Source: a virus
Taxonomy: Duplodnaviria > Heunggongvirae > Uroviricota > Caudoviricetes
Reading direction: 5' to 3' (one strand)
Length of the DNA: 36,107 nucleotides
Virus record (IMG/VR): IMGVR_UViG_2630968500_000009
Position 1 is the stretch's first letter, and each line of letters begins with the position of its first letter. The notes beneath the pieces are model-generated. The model saw only the letters and a list, made by a program, of their open reading frames with translations, searched no databases and was not told the DNA's origin. The translations under genes and the position numbers were made by a program. Shown one piece after another: positions 3,279-36,107 of the stretch.

Positions 3279-3491
3279 TCATGAAAGGTAAACATTGGCA
3301 GCTGAAGGGCCACGCAGACCATTTATCCGGCAAAATTCCACGCGTAATCCGGTGGTAATTTCTTCTGCATCGCGGAGATTGAGCGCTGAAACATGAAGCT
3401 GGACATCGATACGACCATCGGATGGGGTGATAAGACCCTTGCCGCTTTTGCCGTCAAAGGTTTTGACAATTCCTGTCATTTTACGGGACAA
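3279..3491 (-). CDS. cspF: Cold-shock-domain protein, CspF-like (70 aa)
   Basis: [26 protein letters not shown]... is a divergent CspA-family member; transcribed divergently from cspB. Confidence 0.8.
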
Positions 3492-3791
3492 AAAAATTCC
3501 TTAATACTGATAACTTGGCGCACTATACACACGTTCCTGAAGAAAGCTATAGTTTTTTGATGGGGTTGAAGATGGCTGGATGTCTAAAATAAACATTGCT
3601 TCATATGTTCAACTATGCGTTAATGATTGCGTCGGTTTGAAGAACAGACGATATACGAAGTAGTTTACTAAAGCAGTTCTCATTTCAGGTGTTATTCACT
3701 TATTCCTTCTTTGAGTCTCTCCAATTAAGTACGAAGTCGTTTCTGTTATGCAAACCATTTATGCCGAAAGGCTCAAGTTAAGGAATGTAGA

Positions 3792-4007
3792 ATGTCAAAT
3801 AAAATGACTGGTTTAGTAAAATGGTTTAACGCTGATAAAGGTTTCGGCTTTATTTCTCCTGTTGATGGTAGTAAAGATGTGTTTGTGCATTTTTCTGCGA
3901 TTCAGAATGATAATTATCGAACCTTATTTGAAGGTCAAAAGGTTACCTTCTCTATAGAGAGTGGTGCTAAAGGTCCTGCAGCAGCAAATGTCATCATTAC
4001 TGATTAA
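3792..4007 (+). CDS. cspB: Cold-shock protein CspB-like (71 aa)
   Basis: [23 protein letters not shown]...VHFSAI... carries canonical CspA RNP1/RNP2 motifs; long AT-rich 5' leader. Confidence 0.8.
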
Positions 4008-6496: not shown

Positions 6497-6772
6497 GTGG
6501 CTTCTGTTTCTATCAGCTGTCCCTCCTGTTCAGCTACTGACGGGGTGGTGCGTAACGGCAAAAGCACCGCCGGACATCAGCGCTATCTCTGCTCTCACTG
6601 CCGTAAAACATGGCAACTGCAGTTCACTTACACCGCTTCTCAACCCGGTACGCACCAGAAAATCATTGATATGGCCATGAATGGCGTTGGATGCCGGGCA
6701 ACAGCCCGCATTATGGGCGTTGGCCTCAACACGATTTTACGTCACTTAAAAAACTCAGGCCGCAGTCGGTAA
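6497..6772 (+). CDS. insA: IS1 InsA (91 aa)
   Basis: [43 protein letters not shown]... matches IS1 InsA. Confidence 0.9.
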
Positions 6773-7194
6773 CCTCGCGCATACAGCCGGGCAGTGACGT
6801 CATCGTCTGCGCGGAAATGGACGAACAGTGGGGATACGTCGGGGCTAAATCGCGCCAGCGCTGGCTGTTTTACGCGTATGACAGTCTCCGGAAGACGGTT
6901 GTTGCGCACGTATTCGGTGAACGCACTATGGCGACGCTGGGGCGTCTTATGAGCCTGCTGTCACCCTTTGACGTGGTGATATGGATGACGGATGGCTGGC
7001 CGCTGTATGAATCCCGCCTGAAGGGAAAGCTGCACGTAATCAGCAAGCGATATACGCAGCGAATTGAGCGGCATAACCTGAATCTGAGGCAGCACCTGGC
7101 ACGGCTGGGACGGAAGTCGCTGTCGTTCTCAAAATCGGTGGAGCTGCATGACAAAGTCATCGGGCATTATCTGAACATAAAACACTATCAATAA
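6691..7194 (+). CDS. insB: IS1 InsB (167 aa; InsAB' transposase made by -1 frameshift)
   Basis: [25 protein letters not shown]... matches IS1 InsB. Confidence 0.9.
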
Positions 7195-7455: not shown

Positions 7456-7668
7456 ATGTCTAACAAAATGACTGGTTTAGTGAAATGGTTTAACCCTGAA
7501 AAAGGTTTTGGTTTCATCACGCCGAAAGATGGCAGCAAAGATGTGTTTGTCCATTTCTCAGCAATTCAGAGCAACGATTTCAAAACATTAACTGAGAATC
7601 AGGAAGTTGAATTTGGTATTGAGAACGGACCTAAAGGTCCTGCCGCTGTTCATGTAGTGGCGCTTTGA
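7456..7668 (+). CDS. cspI: Cold-shock protein CspI-like (70 aa)
   Basis: [38 protein letters not shown]...; long AT-rich leader; CspA-family motifs. Confidence 0.8.
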
Positions 7669-7873
7669 GGTAGACAATATTACAAACCATATTCACTTTA
7701 GATGCCCGTGTTGTCATGGTTCCCAGTATAGAACATCATCTTTTGATGTTTCTGACATGAATCCTTTCGGGGCAAAATGTATCTTTTGTAAATCAATGAT
7801 GATTACATTTGATAATATTTCACAATACTTAAATGCCAGCCGTCTGTCGTTGGATTTAAAAAAGTGAAAATGA

Positions 7874-7897
7874 AGGCTCCTTCGGGAGCTTTTTTGC
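7874..7897 (+). terminator. Rho-independent terminator
   Basis: AGGCTCC-TTCG-GGAGCT hairpin followed by TTTTT. Confidence 0.45.
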
Positions 7898-7939
7898 TTG
7901 GTGTCTATTCGATGGATACTCACATACTACGGTAACATC

Positions 7940-25068: not shown

Positions 25069-28470
<3,402 letters not shown>

Positions 28471-28536: not shown

Positions 28537-29136
28537 ATGCGTAAACTTTATGCCGCCATTTTGTCCGCAGCCATTTGTCTGGCCGTATCCGGTGCGCCTG
28601 CATGGGCGTCTGAACATCAGTCCACGCTGAGCGCGGGGTATCTTCATGCCTCGACGAACGTTCCCGGCAGCGATGATCTGAACGGGATTAACGTGAAATA
28701 CCGTTATGAGTTTACGGACACACTGGGGCTGGTGACGTCATTCAGCTATGCAGGAGACAAGAATCGCCAGCTTACCCGTTACAGCGATACCCGCTGGCAT
28801 GAAGATTCCGTGCGTAACCGCTGGTTCAGCGTGATGGCGGGGCCGTCTGTGCGCGTGAATGAATGGTTCAGCGCGTATGCGATGGCGGGTATGGCTTACA
28901 GCCGTGTGTCGACTTTCTCCGGGGATTATCTCCGCGTAACTGACAACAAGGGGAAAACGCACGACGTGCTGACCGGAAGTGATGACGGTCGCCACAGCAA
29001 CACGTCTCTGGCGTGGGGAGCTGGCGTGCAGTTTAACCCGACCGAATCCGTGGCCATTGATGTCGCTTATGAAGGCTCCGGCAGTGGTGACTGGCGCACT
29101 GACGGGTTCATCGTGGGTGTTGGTTATAAATTCTGA
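28537..29136 (+). CDS. lom: Lom-family outer-membrane beta-barrel protein (Ail/PagC family), 199 aa
   Basis: Signal peptide ([13 protein letters not shown]) and C-terminal ...[20 protein letters not shown] as in lambda Lom; N-terminal half differs from the lambda Lom I recall. Confidence 0.8.
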
Positions 29137-29163
29137 TTAGCCAGGTAACACAGTGTTATGACA

Positions 29164-29189
29164 GCCCGCCGGTTCAGGCGGGCTTTTTT
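29164..29189 (+). terminator. Rho-independent terminator after lom
   Basis: GCCCGCC-GGTTCA-GGCGGGC followed by TTTTTT. Confidence 0.5.
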
Positions 29190-29200
29190 GTGGGGTGAAT

Positions 29201-32200
29201 ATGGCAGTAAAAATTTCAGGTGTACTGAAAGACGGCACAGGAAAACCGGTACAGAACTGCACAATCCAGCTGAAAGCAAAACGTAACAGTACCACGGTGG
29301 TGGTGAACACGCTGGCATCTGAAAATCCGGATGAAGCCGGGCGTTACAGTATGGACGTTGAGTACGGTCAGTACAGCGTTATTCTGTTGGTGGAAGGATT
29401 CCCGCCGTCACATGCCGGGACCATCACAGTGTATGAAGATTCCCGACCCGGTACGCTGAATGATTTTCTCGGTGCCATGACGGAGGATGATGCCCGTCCG
29501 GAGGCACTGCGCCGTTTTGAGCTGATGGTGGAAGAGGTGGCGCGTAACGCGTCCGTGGTGGCACAGAACACGGCAGCCGCGAAGAAGTCAGCCAGTGATG
29601 CCAGCACATCAGCCCGTGAGGCGGCAACCCATGCGACTGATGCTGCAGGCTCAGCACGCGCAGCCAGCACGTCAGCCGGACAGGCCGCGTCGTCGGCTCA
29701 GTCAGCGACTTCCAGCGCAGGAACGGCATCAACAAAGGCCACTGAAGCATCAAAAAGTGCTGCCGCTGCAGAGTCCTCAAAAAGCGCGGCAGCTACCAGT
29801 GCCAGTGCCGCGAAAACGTCAGAAACGAATGCTGCAGCGTCACAACAATCAGCAGCCACTTCTGCATCCACCGCGACTACGAAAGCGTCAGAAGCTGCCA
29901 CCTCAGCCCGGGATGCGGCGGCTTCAAAAGAGGCGGCAAAATCATCAGAAACGAACGCATCCTCGAGCGCCAGTAGCGCAGCTTCCTCGGCAACAGCGGC
30001 AGGAAATTCCGCGAAGGCGGCAAAAACGTCAGAGACGAACGCCAGGTCTTCTGAAACGGCAGCGGGACAGAGCGCCTCGGCTGCGGCAGGCTCAAAAACA
30101 GCGGCTGCGTCGTCTGCCAGTGCAGCGTCAACAAGTGCCGGGCAGGCCTCAGCCAGTGCCACCGCCGCCGGAAAATCGGCAGAAAGCGCCGCATCGTCTG
30201 CTTCAACAGCCACAACGAAGGCTGGCGAAGCCACTGAACAGGCCAGCGCAGCAGCGAGGTCTGCTTCCGCAGCGAAGACATCCGAAACGAACGCGAAAGC
30301 GTCGGAAACCAGCGCAGAATCCTCAAAAACGGCTGCCGCATCGTCAGCCAGTTCGGCGTCGTCATCGGCATCATCTGCGTCTGCTTCAAAAGATGAGGCG
30401 ACCAGACAGGCGTCAGCAGCGAAGGGTAGCGCCACGACGGCATCCACGAAGGCGACAGAGGCAGCTGGCAGTGCGACGGCAGCAGCTCAGAGCAAAAGTA
30501 CGGCGGAATCTGCAGCAACGCGCGCTGAGACAGCGGCAAAACGGGCAGAGGATATTGCATCCGCCGTGGCGCTTGAGGATGCGAGCACGACGAAAAAGGG
30601 GATAGTACAGCTCAGCAGTGCGACCAACAGCACTTCCGAGTCACTGGCGGCAACGCCAAAAGCCGTTAAGGCCGCGTATGACCTGGCTAACGGGAAATAC
30701 ACCGCACAGGATGCAACGACAGCACAGAAAGGGATAATCCAGCTAAGCAGTGCGACCAACAGCACGTCTGAAACGCTGGCGGCAACGCCAAAGGCAGTAA
30801 AAGCAGCCAATGACAATGCTGAGAAACGTCTGCAGAAAGATCAGAACGGTGCGGATATCCCTGGCAAAGACACCTTTACGAAAAATATTGGTGCCTGCCG
30901 TGCCTTCGGTGGGTCAGTAAGCACAACAACAGGAAACTGGACGACTGCACAGTTTATCGAGTGGCTGGATTCTCAGGGAGCATTTAACCATCCATACTGG
31001 ATGTGCAAGGGTTCCTGGTCTTATGGCAATAATAAAATCATTACTGATACTGGCTGCGGTAATATTCATCTCGCCGGAGCTGTCATTGAAGTAATGGGGA
31101 TAAAGTCAGCGATGACGATCCGCATTACCACACCGACCACCTCCACTGGTGGTGGAACAACTAACGCCCAGTTTACCTATATTAATCACGGAACAGATTA
31201 TTCACCTGGCTGGCGAAGGGACTATAACTCCAGAAATAAGCCAACGGCATCAGAGATCGGGGCGTTACCGTCAGGTGGAACAGCAGTATCATCAGTTAAT
31301 CTGTCTTCAAAAGGTCGGGTAACCGCGCTGACAGACAATACGCAGGGGGCAACAGGTCTTGAGTTATACGAGGTGTATAACAACGGATATCCAACAGCGT
31401 ATGGAAATATCATTCACCTGAAAGGGATGACAGCCGTTGGCGAAGGTGAGTTACTCATCGGCTGGAGTGGTACAAGCGGTGCTCATGCTCCGGCATTTAT
31501 TCGTTCACGACGGGATACGACCGACGCAAACTGGTCGCCGTGGGCGCAGCTTTACACCTCGGCTCATCCTCCTGCAGAGTTTTATCCAGTCGGTGCACCA
31601 ATCCCGTGGCCATCAGATACCGTTCCGTCTGGTTATGCCCTGATGCAGGGGCAGACTTTTGACAAATCTGCTTACCCGAAACTTGCAGCCGCTTATCCGT
31701 CAGGCGTGATCCCTGATATGCGTGGCTGGACGATTAAGGGCAAGCCCGCCAGTGATCGAGCCGTATTGTCTCAGGAACAGGACGGCATTAAATCACACAC
31801 CCACAGCGCCAGCGTATCCAGTACGGATTTGGGGACGAAAACCACATCGTCGTTTGATTACGGCACTAAATCCACGAATAACACTGGTGCGCATACCCAT
31901 AGTGTTAGCGGTACGGCTGCTTCAGCCGGTGCACATACCCATTCGATGACATTTGTTTCAGGTGGTTCCAGTGGTGCTCCGGGAAGTGGATCACCTGATT
32001 ACTCTAAATACAGTGTTAACACTTCTTCTGCAGGCGCTCATACGCACTCTGTATCGGGTACTGCTGCAAGCGCAGGTGCACACGCACATACTGTCGGTAT
32101 TGGTGCTCATACGCACTCCGTTGCGATTGGTTCACATGGACATACCATCACCGTTAACGCTGCTGGTAACGCGGAAAACACCGTCAAAAACATCGCATTT

Positions 32201-32224
32201 AACTATATTGTGAGGCTTGCATAA
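29201..32224 (+). CDS. stf: Side tail fibre protein Stf (about 1007 aa from ATG 29201)
   Basis: [26 protein letters not shown]... N-terminus as in lambda Stf; long Ala/Ser/Thr-rich shaft; C-terminal HxH repeats (GAHTHSVSG...). Confidence 0.85.
29530..30610 (+). repeat. Degenerate tandem repeats encoding the Ala/Ser/Thr-rich Stf shaft
   Basis: Recurrent units such as AAKTSETNA / [16 protein letters not shown] at roughly 100-130 bp periodicity; low-complexity composition. Confidence 0.5.
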
Positions 32225-32799
32225 TGGCATTCAGAATGAGTGAACAACCACGGACCATAAAAATTTATAATCTGCTGGCCGGAACTAATGAATTTATTGG
32301 TGAAGGTGACGCATATATTCCGCCTCATACAGGTCTGCCAGCAAACAGTATCGATATTGCACCGCCAGATATTCCGGCAGGCTTCGTGGCTGTTTTCAAC
32401 AGTGATGAGGCATCGTGGCATCTCGTTGAAGATCATCGGGGTAAAACGGTTTATGACGTGGCTTCCGGCGACGCGTTATTTATTTCTGAACTCGGTCCGT
32501 TACCGGAAAATGTTACCTGGTTATCGCCGGGAGGGGAATATCAGAAGTGGAACGGCACAGCCTGGGTGAAGGATACGGAAGCAGAAAAACTGTTCCGGAT
32601 CCGGGAGGCGGAAGAAACAAAAAACAGCCTGATGCAGGTAGCCAGTGAGCATATTGCGCCGCTTCAGGATGCTGCAGATCTGGAAATTGCAACGGAGGAA
32701 GAAATCTCGTTGCTGGAAGCATGGAAAAAGTATCGGGTATTGCTGAACCGTGTTGATACGTCAACTGCACAGGATATTGAATGGCCAGCACTGCCGTAG
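32224..32799 (+). CDS. tfa: Tail fibre assembly chaperone Tfa (191 aa)
   Basis: Start overlaps stf stop (ATAATGG); sequence resembles lambda/K-12 Tfa proteins. Confidence 0.85.
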
Positions 32800-32896
32800 G
32801 GTAAAACATATAAATTCTATAATTAGATGTATCTTTCCATTTACGGCAAGGAAGGTGGCTTGGAAGACGTAAAGCATCTCACACCGAGATTATTTT

Positions 32897-33487
32897 TTAT
32901 ATGTCAGGTGTCTGAAGTTTTGCTTTGGCTCTTAAAATGGTTTGCCGCGAGGTTTTGAATTCCCGGGCAATGGCACTTATACTTACACCTGACTTAATTC
33001 GTTCGAATACCACCTGTTTCTGTTCTTCATTTAACACAGGTGGTCGACCAAAACGTTTCCCTGCGCCCCGGGCTCTTACTATCCCGGAATGAGTGCGTTC
33101 AAGTAAAAGGTCTCGTTCAAATTCAGCGACTGCTGAAATTACTTGCATCATCATTTTTCCTGTTGGACTGGTCAGGTCAATGCCCCCCAATGCTAAGCAA
33201 TGCACTCTGATACCTGTTTCGGTCAGTTGTTCCACTGTTTTCCTGATATCCATTGCATTACAACCAAGGCGATCCAGTTTTGTCACAATCAATTGATCAC
33301 CACATTTCAGGCGAGCAAGCAACCGGTTAAAACCAGGACGCTCACTGGTTGCTGCTGAGCCGCTAATGTGTTCTTCGATTATTTGCTGAGGTTTGATTTT
33401 AAAACCTGCACTTTCGATTTCCCGGCGTTGATTTTCGGTGGTCTGATCCAGCGTTGATATCCGACAGTAAGCAAAAATTCGAGACAT
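32897..33487 (-). CDS. pinQ: Serine recombinase, resolvase/invertase family (196 aa)
   Basis: N-terminal catalytic motif (YCRISTLDQ with the active-site Ser) and C-terminal HTH; sits beside tfa as pinQ does in Qin-type prophages. Confidence 0.75.
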
Positions 33488-33803
33488 AGTGAGACTCTAT
33501 ACGAAATTGGTGTTCATATCATAATGCATCTCAGAAAATAATTTTGATTATTTTTGTGCATATTTGTATGTACACGTTCGAAAATAAACGAATGCGTATG
33601 CAACCCCGTAATTTTGGTGAGACCCAAAATCGATTTTGTGAAAAATGGCTTTAACTCGGTTTGTTTTTCGAGTTCCGGGCGGACTCAAGGAAGAAGAATA
33701 GTGTTGCGTGTTATTTTAACCAGATTTCAAGTTGTTTGGTCGTGGAAAAGTGGAGCAAAATGTTGTTAAAGTGGAAAAATGATAAAAAAGTAAGTTTATT
33801 ATA

Positions 33804-34037
33804 TTACATTTTACCATTTAAATTTTGGTTGTCTTTAAGAACTGATATCGCTGTTTGTAATAATTCTTTGTTATCCAGCCATGATTTTTTCTTTATGTTT
33901 CCTTCAATGTAATCAAGCAATGTTCTGGTATTGATAGGTCTTCCCTGTTTTGCTACTTCCACTACAGCATCCCCTAGGATAATTCTTACTTCAGGAAGCT
34001 GCGCAGGGAACCACTTTAGGGTGTCTTTTGATTTCAT
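33804..34037 (-). CDS. ydfK: Small protein YdfK/YnaE-like (77 aa from internal ATG)
   Basis: MKSKDTLKWFPAQLPEVRIILGDAVVEVAKQG...; AAGGA SD upstream of ATG 34037; AT-rich long leader. Confidence 0.55.
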   Translation of the reverse strand: MKSKDTLKWFPAQLPEVRIILGDAVVEVAKQGRPINTRTLLDYIEGNIKKKSWLDNKELLQTAISVLKDNQNLNGKM

Positions 34038-34823
34038 GAAGATATTCCTTAAAATATTATTGATTTTCATTGCGATATTGTATGTCTGATTCAGGATATG
34101 TTGACTTATACATCGGTTTTGTCTGGGTTATTGGATATGCCAATCCCTAATTTTATTAGGGCATGACTAAAAATGCTGAATATGATAAGGAGAGATGTGA
34201 TTATCAGTATGCTGTTCATATAGCCTCGAATTAGTAATGTGTTATATATGATATAGTTGACAATTTTTATCTTGGGTGTTCTTAAAGTTCGTAGATAAAC
34301 ATTGTCGTTTCAGGTATACAGGAATGCTAACAGGTGGCAGCAAAAATCAGGCGGTTTATGGCGCAAGCTGAAGCGGCAACTGCAAACTATCTTATGCAGA
34401 GACTCTACACGGATTGGGTTTAAAAGTATACATAGATAACAGTTTTTATCTGAAAAATAAAAATATCAAGGTGATATAGCCTATATGCCTTTGATGCGGA
34501 GGAATGAATGTGATGGGAGTGATGTATCTGAATAGTTGAAAAACCGCAGACACGCCTTATGCAAGAACGTGCTGCGGTTGGCTGGTAAATTTTTCGATAG
34601 TGTGAGTATTGAATGATTTCCAGCCGTTCTTGATTTTACGCATAAATCCATGAAAAAACTACTTATCTGTTGGGGAGTTTTTTTTGGGGCATATATGGGA
34701 CATAAATAGGCCCCAGATAGACACTGAGATCGAACTTAGGATGCTTTTTAAAAAATGCAACTATCTGAAAAAACCTAGAAAACGCCAAGGAAACCACAGG
34801 ATGGGAAAAAACACCTGTGAATT

Positions 34824-36107
34824 ATGGATTTCCAGTTATATTCGCTCGGCGCAGCGTTAGTGTTTCATGAAATATTTTTTCCTGAATCATCAACGGCAAT
34901 GGCGTTAATTCTGGCAATGGGAACCTACGGTGCAGGTTATGTGGCGCGTATTGTCGGAGCATTTATTTTCGGCAAAATGGGCGACAGAATAGGGCGTAAA
35001 AAAGTGCTCTTTATTACCATCACCATGATGGGGATCTGTACCACCTTAATTGGTGTGTTACCGACCTATGCACAGATTGGTGTTTTTGCACCCATCTTGC
35101 TGGTGACGTTGCGTATTATTCAGGGGTTGGGTGCAGGTGCGGAAATTTCCGGTGCCGGTACGATGCTGGCGGAATATGCGCCAAAAGGTAAGCGCGGAAT
35201 TATCTCCTCATTTGTGGCTATGGGAACTAACTGCGGAACCTTGAGCGCAACGGCAATCTGGGCCTTTATGTTCTTCATTCTCAGTAAAGAGGAACTGCTG
35301 GCGTGGGGATGGCGTATACCGTTCCTGGCGAGCGTTGTCGTGATGGTCTTTGCTATCTGGTTGCGTATGAATCTGAAAGAAAGCCCGGTCTTTGAGAAGG
35401 TTAACGACAGTAACCAACCGACAGCAAAACCTGCACCTGCTGGTAGCATGTTCCAGAGCAAATCCTTCTGGCTGGCAACAGGGCTGCGTTTTGGTCAGGC
35501 GGGTAACTCCGGGTTAATTCAGACTTTCCTTGCAGGCTATTTAGTGCAGACGTTATTGTTTAACAAAGCAATTCCAACAGATGCATTGATGATCAGTTCG
35601 ATTCTCGGCTTTATGACCATTCCGTTCCTTGGTTGGTTATCCGATAAAATTGGTCGCCGGATCCCGTATATTATTATGAATACCTCCGCGATTGTGCTGG
35701 CATGGCCAATGCTTTCTATCATTGTAGATAAAAGCTATGCCCCGAGCACCATTATGGTTGCACTGATTGTGATTCATAACTGTGCGGTGCTGGGATTATT
35801 TGCTCTGGAAAACATTACCATGGCAGAAATGTTCGGCTGTAAAAACCGCTTTACCCGGATGGCTATTTCTAAAGAAATTGGTGGTCTTATCGCTTCCGGT
35901 TTTGGTCCTATCCTGGCGGGTATTTTCTGCACCATGACGGAATCCTGGTATCCGATCGCCATTATGATCATGGCATATTCAGTGATTGGTTTAATCTCTG
36001 CGCTGAAAATACCAGAGGTGAAAGACCGTGATTTAAGTGCGCTGGAAGACGCTGCGGAAGATCAACCGCGTGTTGTAAGAGCTGCGCAACCTTCCAGAAG
36101 TCTGTAA
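34824..36107 (+). CDS. ydfJ: MFS transporter, metabolite:H+ symporter family, 5'-truncated at prophage junction
   Basis: Starts inside the conserved first TM segment (MDFQLYSLGAALVFHEIFFP...) and has the GDRIGRKK loop motif; an in-frame stop lies directly upstream (34818-34820), so the native N-terminus (about 25-30 residues) is absent. Confidence 0.7.
   Translation: MDFQLYSLGAALVFHEIFFPESSTAMALILAMGTYGAGYVARIVGAFIFGKMGDRIGRKKVLFITITMMGICTTLIGVLPTYAQIGVFAPILLVTLRIIQGLGAGAEISGAGTMLAEYAPKGKRGIISSFVAMGTNCGTLSATAIWAFMFFILSKEELLAWGWRIPFLASVVVMVFAIWLRMNLKESPVFEKVNDSNQPTAKPAPAGSMFQSKSFWLATGLRFGQAGNSGLIQTFLAGYLVQTLLFNKAIPTDALMISSILGFMTIPFLGWLSDKIGRRIPYIIMNTSAIVLAWPMLSIIVDKSYAPSTIMVALIVIHNCAVLGLFALENITMAEMFGCKNRFTRMAISKEIGGLIASGFGPILAGIFCTMTESWYPIAIMIMAYSVIGLISALKIPEVKDRDLSALEDAAEDQPRVVRAAQPSRSL

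Follow-up and report, generated by a model that had tools for sequence, protein, structure and literature searches.

The 3′ end of the side tail fiber gene in the window (the whole 36,107-nucleotide stretch of DNA that we analyzed) very probably specifies the receptor-binding module at the C terminus of a lambda-type Stf protein, homologous to the tip of T4 gp37. The account that we favor, with a probability of about 0.9, joins an iron needle, an ancient internal duplication, and a mosaic cassette in the explanation of a 17-amino-acid (aa) repeat whose two DNA copies have diverged. The HxH iron-binding needle is already known for the gp37/Stf family. The original prediction, which had pointed out the repeat and proposed that it coordinates metal, was correct in its observation and essentially right in its interpretation. 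Our additions are small: unit-specific Ser codon families, the boundaries of a cassette, and a rule that relates needle length to module count. The main use of the result is correct annotation, as an intact gp37/Stf-type receptor-binding module of the short-headed type, carried by a complete E. coli prophage in the Qin locus.

Gene context of the side tail fiber

The window is a stretch of Escherichia coli chromosome whose Qin locus is occupied by a complete lambdoid prophage. Bases 29000 to 36107 are 100% identical to E. coli strain G5 (NZ_CP060065.1) and to several other genomes. The G5 stretch that matches the whole window is annotated by PGAP from hokD to a truncated ydfJ, and its gene order is nohA, terminase, head and tail genes, J, lom, stf, tfaQ, pinQ, ydfK, and truncated ydfJ. 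PGAP starts stf at ATG 29201 (1,007 aa), and the mechanical open reading frame starts at GTG 29195 (29195 to 32224, plus strand, 1,009 aa); aa numbers of the repeat units are counted from the GTG. The features used below are as follows.

25072 to 28470: J (PGAP annotation of the G5 stretch)
28537 to 29136: lom (PGAP annotation of the G5 stretch)
29201 to 32224, plus strand: stf, side tail fiber gene (PGAP start)
31592 to 31735, plus strand: Collar domain PF07484 (aa 800 to 847, E = 6.8e-12), counterpart of T4 gp37 domain D10
31796 to 31804, plus strand: HxH motif 1 (HTH), aligned with gp37 His883/885
31805 to 31885, plus strand: putative ascending needle strand with one 12-aa (SFDYGTK) module, from comparison with homologs
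31885 to 32083, plus strand: mosaic cassette unit 1-head-unit 2, from a mismatch map against PhiR29_2 and PhiR26_1
31886 to 31936, plus strand: unit 1, 17 aa, with HxH motif 2 (31892 to 31900) and the first His of motif 3 (31934 to 31942)
31943 to 32032, plus strand: variable, putative receptor-binding head segment of 30 aa that separates HxH motifs 3 and 4
32033 to 32083, plus strand: unit 2, 17 aa, with HxH motif 4 (32039 to 32047) and the first His of motif 5 (32081 to 32089)
32084 to 32143, plus strand: putative descending needle strand with HxH motifs 5 (HAH), 6 (HTH, 32108 to 32116), and 7 (HGH, 32135 to 32143) at 9-aa spacing
32144 to 32221, plus strand: conserved C-terminal tail, 26 aa, 97 to 100% nucleotide identity to lambdoid relatives
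32224 to 32799, plus strand: tfaQ, tail fiber assembly chaperone (Caudo_TAP, E = 9.8e-43)
32897 to 33487, minus strand: pinQ (PGAP annotation of the G5 stretch)

The N terminus of Stf carries the prophage tail fiber domain PF08400 (E = 1.4e-71); this domain, two Phage_fiber_2 (PF03406) matches, and the Collar domain all score above their Pfam cutoffs. The tfaQ product is the functional partner required for folding of the Stf tip. An invertible tail fiber segment beside pinQ was considered and rejected: the gap between tfaQ and pinQ is only 97 bp and holds no alternative tfa' or stf', and a search for the Gin/Hin-type crossover site TTCNNNNAAACCNNGGTTTNNNNGAA with up to three mismatches gave no match.

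The HxH needle and its T4 counterpart

Translation of the open reading frame confirmed that one 17-aa unit occurs twice, exactly, at aa 898 to 914 (nucleotides 31886 to 31936) and aa 947 to 963 (nucleotides 32033 to 32083). Chance low complexity was rejected as the source of this repeat: when the His-rich final 145 aa were shuffled 5,000 times, 99% of the shuffles had a longest exact peptide repeat of 3 to 5 aa, and none had one above 7 aa. Further HxH motifs had been predicted around the units, and seven HxH motifs in all lie within the interval from 31790 to 32150, starting at nucleotides 31796, 31892, 31934, 32039, 32081, 32108, and 32135.

A phmmer search of the PDB matched the last 214 aa of Stf to 2XGF, the T4 gp37 tip (E = 3.5e-87), with aa 129 to 342 of the 342-aa query fragment aligned to chain residues 28 to 242; tblastn against T4 gave 68 to 69% identity. 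The Collar region aligns to 2XGF and also to the short tail fiber collar 9CUY. All seven HxH motifs align with gp37 motifs, gap-free around each, at His883, 915, 929, 966, 980, 989, and 998, and the motif that ends unit 1 falls on His929/931. In gp37, seven coordinated iron atoms lie along the needle, three His929 residues of the trimer make up one iron site, the H929A and H931A substitutions are lethal and yield no plaques, and domain D10 comprises residues 811 to 881 and 1010 to 1026 (PMC6957217). The gp37 equivalent of the Stf C-terminal tail folds back to the collar region. The HxH motif is summarized, and reported to be conserved in lambda, in PMC11705849 with reference to Bartual et al. 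2010. Ur-lambda Stf resembles the gp37 tip in both sequence and structure and binds OmpC (PMC12617516), the C terminus of T4 g37 is considered lambda-like in origin (PMC3157838), and a family delimited by homology across the last ~215 aa is on record (PMC9659904).

Beyond being ~69% identical to T4 gp37 in its last 214 residues, Stf shares with it the collar, the seven HxH motifs and their spacing (32, 14, X, 14, 9, and 9 aa), an 11-aa C-terminal sequence, and a chaperone gene adjoining the fiber gene. The two differ in the head, whose sequences are unrelated, in the spacing of motifs 3 and 4 (37 aa in T4 versus 35 aa in the window), and in the units, which are identical at 8 of 17 positions in T4 and at all 17 here. 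The N-terminal 800 aa of the window Stf are lambda-Stf-like, and its chaperone is a Tfa (Caudo_TAP), in contrast to gp38 and gp57A in T4.

Modeled on gp37, each chain of the trimer would exit the collar, climb a thin needle, make a small variable head for contact with the host receptor, and descend. At each of seven needle levels, the HxH motifs of three chains would offer six imidazoles to one octahedrally coordinated metal ion, presumably the Fe(II) of T4, and these sites would rivet the intertwined chains together. Units 1 and 2 would form the last ascending and the first descending strands, adjoining the head; each would supply two metal sites, and their small residues (G, A, S, and T) would be under a tight-packing constraint. 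An AlphaFold2 monomer model of the last 215 aa, built from a 27-sequence alignment, was poor (mean pLDDT, 49; pTM, 0.18) and offered only a low-confidence long hairpin (E106-129/E142-165) in which the two units pair. We infer the Stf trimer, its metal binding, and its strand topology from homology to a solved structure at ~69% identity, and iron as the Stf metal is assumed from T4. The homology to 2XGF and the motif alignment thus support the metal coordination that had been proposed for the His residues, but not its placement in a fiber tip: the motifs belong to the needle shaft beside the head, outside the receptor-contacting tip.

Our homolog search found 1,685 sequences, the best 120 of which were analyzed. 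Far from lacking the motif, homologs mostly keep the seven-HxH architecture, with motif starts spaced 32, 14, X, 14, 9, and 9 aa, in 101 of the 121 sequences examined; some P1-like and P2-like tips are without the 14-spaced HxH pairs. X, measured from the start of motif 3 to that of motif 4, spans the variable head and is 35 to 56 aa in the best 120 homologs, and the window Stf reads 32, 14, 35, 14, 9, and 9. The His residues are invariant in motifs 1 and 4 to 7 and nearly so in motif 3 of the 27-sequence alignment. The lowest identity among homologs falls in the head segment between motifs 3 and 4, which has 27 to 44% nucleotide identity to other tip types.

This contrast bears on the possibility that the HxH motifs, instead of forming structural iron rivets, function in recognizing the receptor or in iron piracy (a "Ferrojan horse") or bind a different metal, for example Zn. 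T4 gp12 does bind Zn through His residues, and such a hypothesis has been discussed for HxH-bearing fibers (PMC11705849). However, invariant motifs around a hypervariable head are the mark of a scaffold, not of a specificity determinant, and the His residues of T4 lie buried on the axis, with the receptor-contacting residues mapped to the head (PMC6957217). We therefore regard this possibility as very unlikely and retain structural iron sites as the preferred reading.

The same GxHxH-containing motif underlies the Pfam family Phage_fiber (PF03335, a 14-aa repeat). In Stf this model scores 19.1 bits (E = 0.0013, aa 895 to 908) against a gathering threshold of 20 bits, and the precomputed Pfam label is present on most homologs, near-identical ones included. 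The GxHxH repeat is reportedly also the motif of the "His boxes" that Tetart and colleagues are said to have described in T-even adhesins in 1996 and 1998.

Codon divergence between the two units

The two copies of the unit share 34 of 51 bases and differ in 12 of 17 codons, every change being synonymous; the original prediction had noticed the many synonymous differences. Independent back-translations of the unit peptide with prophage codon usage are expected to share 36.8 to 37.4 ± 2.6 bases and 5.3 to 5.7 identical codons; the observed values are 34 and 5. Since 34 of 51 is approximately what independent back-translation gives, the DNA-level homology of the units is fully erased and their silent sites are saturated. 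The longest identical DNA tract between the units is at most 8 nucleotides, and a DNA repeat search did not pick up the pair, reporting only short GAHTH boxes.

All three Ser positions switch between AGY and TCN codons, from AGT, AGC, and TCA in unit 1 to TCT, TCG, and AGC in unit 2. At position 8, Ser is encoded by AGY in 17 of 19 tip types in unit 1 and by TCN in 18 of 19 in unit 2, counts that overstate independence since the tips are related; T4 and four other T-even phages are among those that follow this pattern. Ser positions 6 and 13 have the same kind of unit-specific bias, and T4 gp37 matches the unit-specific families at two of the three positions. Because AGY and TCN cannot be interconverted by silent single steps and the families are unit-specific, the identical peptides are held or have been reached by selection in ancient paralogs. 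The internal duplication is ancient, with T4 and lambda carrying both units, and it is older than the divergence of T4-type from lambda-type tips. Selection, purifying or convergent, keeps the two strands close to a single consensus, and the silent sites have been randomized.

Two of the original claims can be read in this light. Selection on the protein repeat is upheld, in that the same or nearly the same peptide occupies both units across many cassette types and synonymous sites are saturated in paralogous as well as orthologous comparisons. The erosion of DNA homology is real and indeed complete, but simple silent drift does not describe it, since the Ser codon families are unit-specific and mostly common to T4. 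The codon families mark the internal repeat as ancient and indicate that peptide identity can persist or arise without DNA homology, although they leave the understanding of gp37/Stf fibers unchanged.

Recent internal duplication of a 51-nucleotide segment, followed by ordinary silent drift, would account for peptides identical at 17 of 17 positions and for the synonymous nature of all 17 nucleotide differences. Yet it is scarcely credible against silent sites that are as divergent as unrelated encodings (34 bases versus 37 ± 2.6), opposite Ser codon families at all three positions, unit-specific families common to most tip types and, at two of three positions, to gp37, and the presence of both units already in T4.

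Unit 2 is near a single consensus family-wide, and unit 1 is more variable; the two are identical at 9 to 17 of 17 aa positions among homologs, with full identity in 29 of 112 protein clusters. At position 6, the variants in unit 1 (N and G) are neighbors of AGY and those in unit 2 (T and P) are neighbors of TCN. Thus, the variants neighbor the Ser codon family of their own unit, which is consistent with selection on two ancient paralogs. Position 7 covaries between units, with V/V accompanying short heads and L/L or I/L accompanying long heads.

This covariation, together with the noninterconvertible Ser codon families and their predominant unit assignment across 19 tips of the lambda and T4 types, also suggests a different history, in which both strands converged independently on one 17-aa peptide and a pseudosymmetric packing rule around the iron sites sets the sequence. 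We think this unlikely, though it deserves some weight. In a weaker variant, the codon divergence would itself be selected, guarding the head cassette from repeat-mediated deletion. Direct repeats 147 nucleotides apart would be prone to deletion by recombination or slippage, and in both tip types with identical units the identity is slightly under random expectation (34 and 33 bases versus 37). This deficit is not significant, however (P about 0.13 to 0.19); own units share the same codon at a fraction of 0.40, versus 0.354 in the cross-gene control across 14 tip types, and orthologous units are almost equally diverged (0.42 to 0.45), so that age alone accounts for the codon divergence. Neither the back-translation randomization nor the own-versus-cross control over 14 tip types detected selection against DNA repeats, and active avoidance of repeats is in our judgment highly improbable. 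Age, under selection on the peptide, is the explanation that we carry forward.

The mosaic cassette and the needle modules

Outside the cassette, relatives are 95 to 100% identical to the window. Against PhiR29_2, DNA identity is 95 to 99% in the flanks and drops to 73% in unit 1, 44% in the head, and 65% in unit 2; the orthologous unit 2 of PhiR29_2 is identical at 17 of 17 aa but has only 4 of 17 codons in common. Megablast matches are broken into two pieces, which fits a cassette swap. In this comparison the divergent block extends from 31885 to 32080, amid near-identical flanks. Unit 1, head, and unit 2 are thus a single, anciently diverged cassette that moves among otherwise near-identical fibers, the units and head being exchanged together. 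Hypervariable segments are reported to be exchanged at the conserved motifs on either side of them (PMC3157838), and the cassette agrees with this.

Some tip types carry traces of a different process. In the PhiR29_2 type, unit 2 uses the Ser codon families of unit 1 and matches it at 19 of 21 nucleotides over one tract, and the L065-type units have 40 of 51 nucleotides in common, with unit-2 codon families in unit 1. Both are what repeated intragenic gene conversion, a form of concerted evolution that keeps the units identical, would leave behind. In the window, by contrast, both units keep the codon families canonical for their positions, the units hold no identical tract longer than 8 nucleotides, and their identity equals random expectation, so there is very little chance that conversion maintains this pair. 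For the family, occasional intragenic conversion probably does contribute to unit similarity, judging by the PhiR29_2-like and L065-like sequences; for the window, two ancient paralogs under selection remain the preferred reading.

The length of the needle follows a simple rule, with one descending IGAHxHxV module for each ascending SFDYGTK module. Tips with eight or nine HxH motifs gain 10 aa (SFDYGTK module) ascending for every 9 aa (IGAHxHxV) descending, a pairing seen in lambda, PhiZZ30, and an Erwinia phage, and homologs with two or three ascending SFDYGTK modules have one or two extra IGAHxHxV modules descending. This rule and the cassette boundaries (31885 to 32083) should be useful for engineering tail fiber chimeras with new host range.

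Among known systems, Ur-lambda Stf (orf401/orf314) with Tfa resembles the window in its gene order J-lom-stf-tfa, its N-terminal PF08400 and Phage_fiber_2 repeats, and its homologous tip. Lambda Stf differs in having eight HxH motifs, with one extra SFDYGTK module ascending and one extra IGAHxHxV module descending, a longer motif 3-4 spacing of 48 aa, and units identical at 11 of 17 positions. It is also shorter, at 774 aa versus 1,007 aa in the window, and the extra length of the window Stf may correspond approximately to a long Ala/Ser-rich region at aa ~125 to 455.

Serine codon families in the two units

The Ser codon at position 8 of the two 17-aa His-x-His (HxH) units at the Stf C terminus, whose peptides are identical in the window, was compared across 19 tip types, from the window (31886-31936 and 32033-32083) and the homologous tip loci L001-L009 and L038-L096. 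It is AGY in unit 1 of 17 tip types and TCN in unit 2 of 18, and the dependence of codon family on unit extends over both lambda-type and T4-type tips. These unit-specific Ser codon families are a marker of the ancient origin of the internal 17-aa repeat.

Two tip types break the rule: L003 (PhiR29_2), in which the identical tract between its own units 1 and 2 is longer (19/21 nt), and L065 (an IMG/VR contig), whose own units are alike at 40/51 nt. The rule-breaking codons, together with these longer identical tracts, suggest occasional intragenic conversion between the two needle strands.

Needle length and head size

The needle comprises an ascending strand before the variable head and a descending strand after it.

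Tip features in the window, within stf (+ strand)
31805-31885, ascending needle strand
32084-32143, descending needle strand
aa 904, position 7 of unit 1
aa 953, position 7 of unit 2

Needle length is modular in the window and in L002, L005, L007, L008, and L009: each additional 10-aa SFDYGTK module in the ascending strand pairs with one additional 9-aa IGAHxHxV (HxH) module in the descending strand, for a total of 7, 8, or 9 predicted metal sites per needle.

Position 7 covaries between the units among the top 120 protein homologues (P0001-P0120), where V/V is found in 60 clusters, L/L in 28, I/L in 16, and V/L in only 4. Clusters with V/V have short heads (32-38 aa); in those with L/L or I/L, the head is mostly long (about 45-53 aa). 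This covariation may reflect shared lineage or a structural contact.

Upstream, a long low-complexity stretch of Stf rich in Ala/Ser/Thr (aa ∼125-455; 29570-30560) carries numerous short, degenerate repeats (KTSETNA and others like it). It also produces spurious ORFs of considerable length, both in other frames and antisense to stf, e.g., 29595-30605 (+) and 29698-30447 (-). A 107-nt direct repeat (30576-30682 and 30708-30814; 78% identity, 132-nt spacing) encodes both Phage_fiber_2 repeats. The mechanical ORF starts at GTG 29195 (MNMAVKISG…), whereas PGAP places the start at ATG 29201 (MAVKISG…), an N terminus that we take to match lambda Stf.

pinQ and the prophage surroundings

Features outside the tail fibre genes
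32897-33487 (-), pinQ serine invertase (Resolvase and HTH_7)
3279-4007, 7456-7935, and 33804-34219, cold-shock family and small-protein genes
34824-36107, ydfJ (MFS transporter), annotated as a pseudogene without its N terminus

pinQ lies 97 bp past tfaQ. The gap holds no alternative tfa' or stf' segment, and the whole window lacks a Gin/Hin-type crossover site; pinQ appears to be an orphan invertase.

The N-terminally cut ydfJ fits prophage integration into this gene, and the right junction of the prophage is expected somewhere from about 34220 to 34824. Cold-shock family and small-protein genes (cspF, cspB, cspI, ymcF, ynfR, ydfK, and ynfT) are unusually concentrated in the prophage, and an IS1A element (6497-7194) has inserted into its lysis region between rzpQ and cspI.
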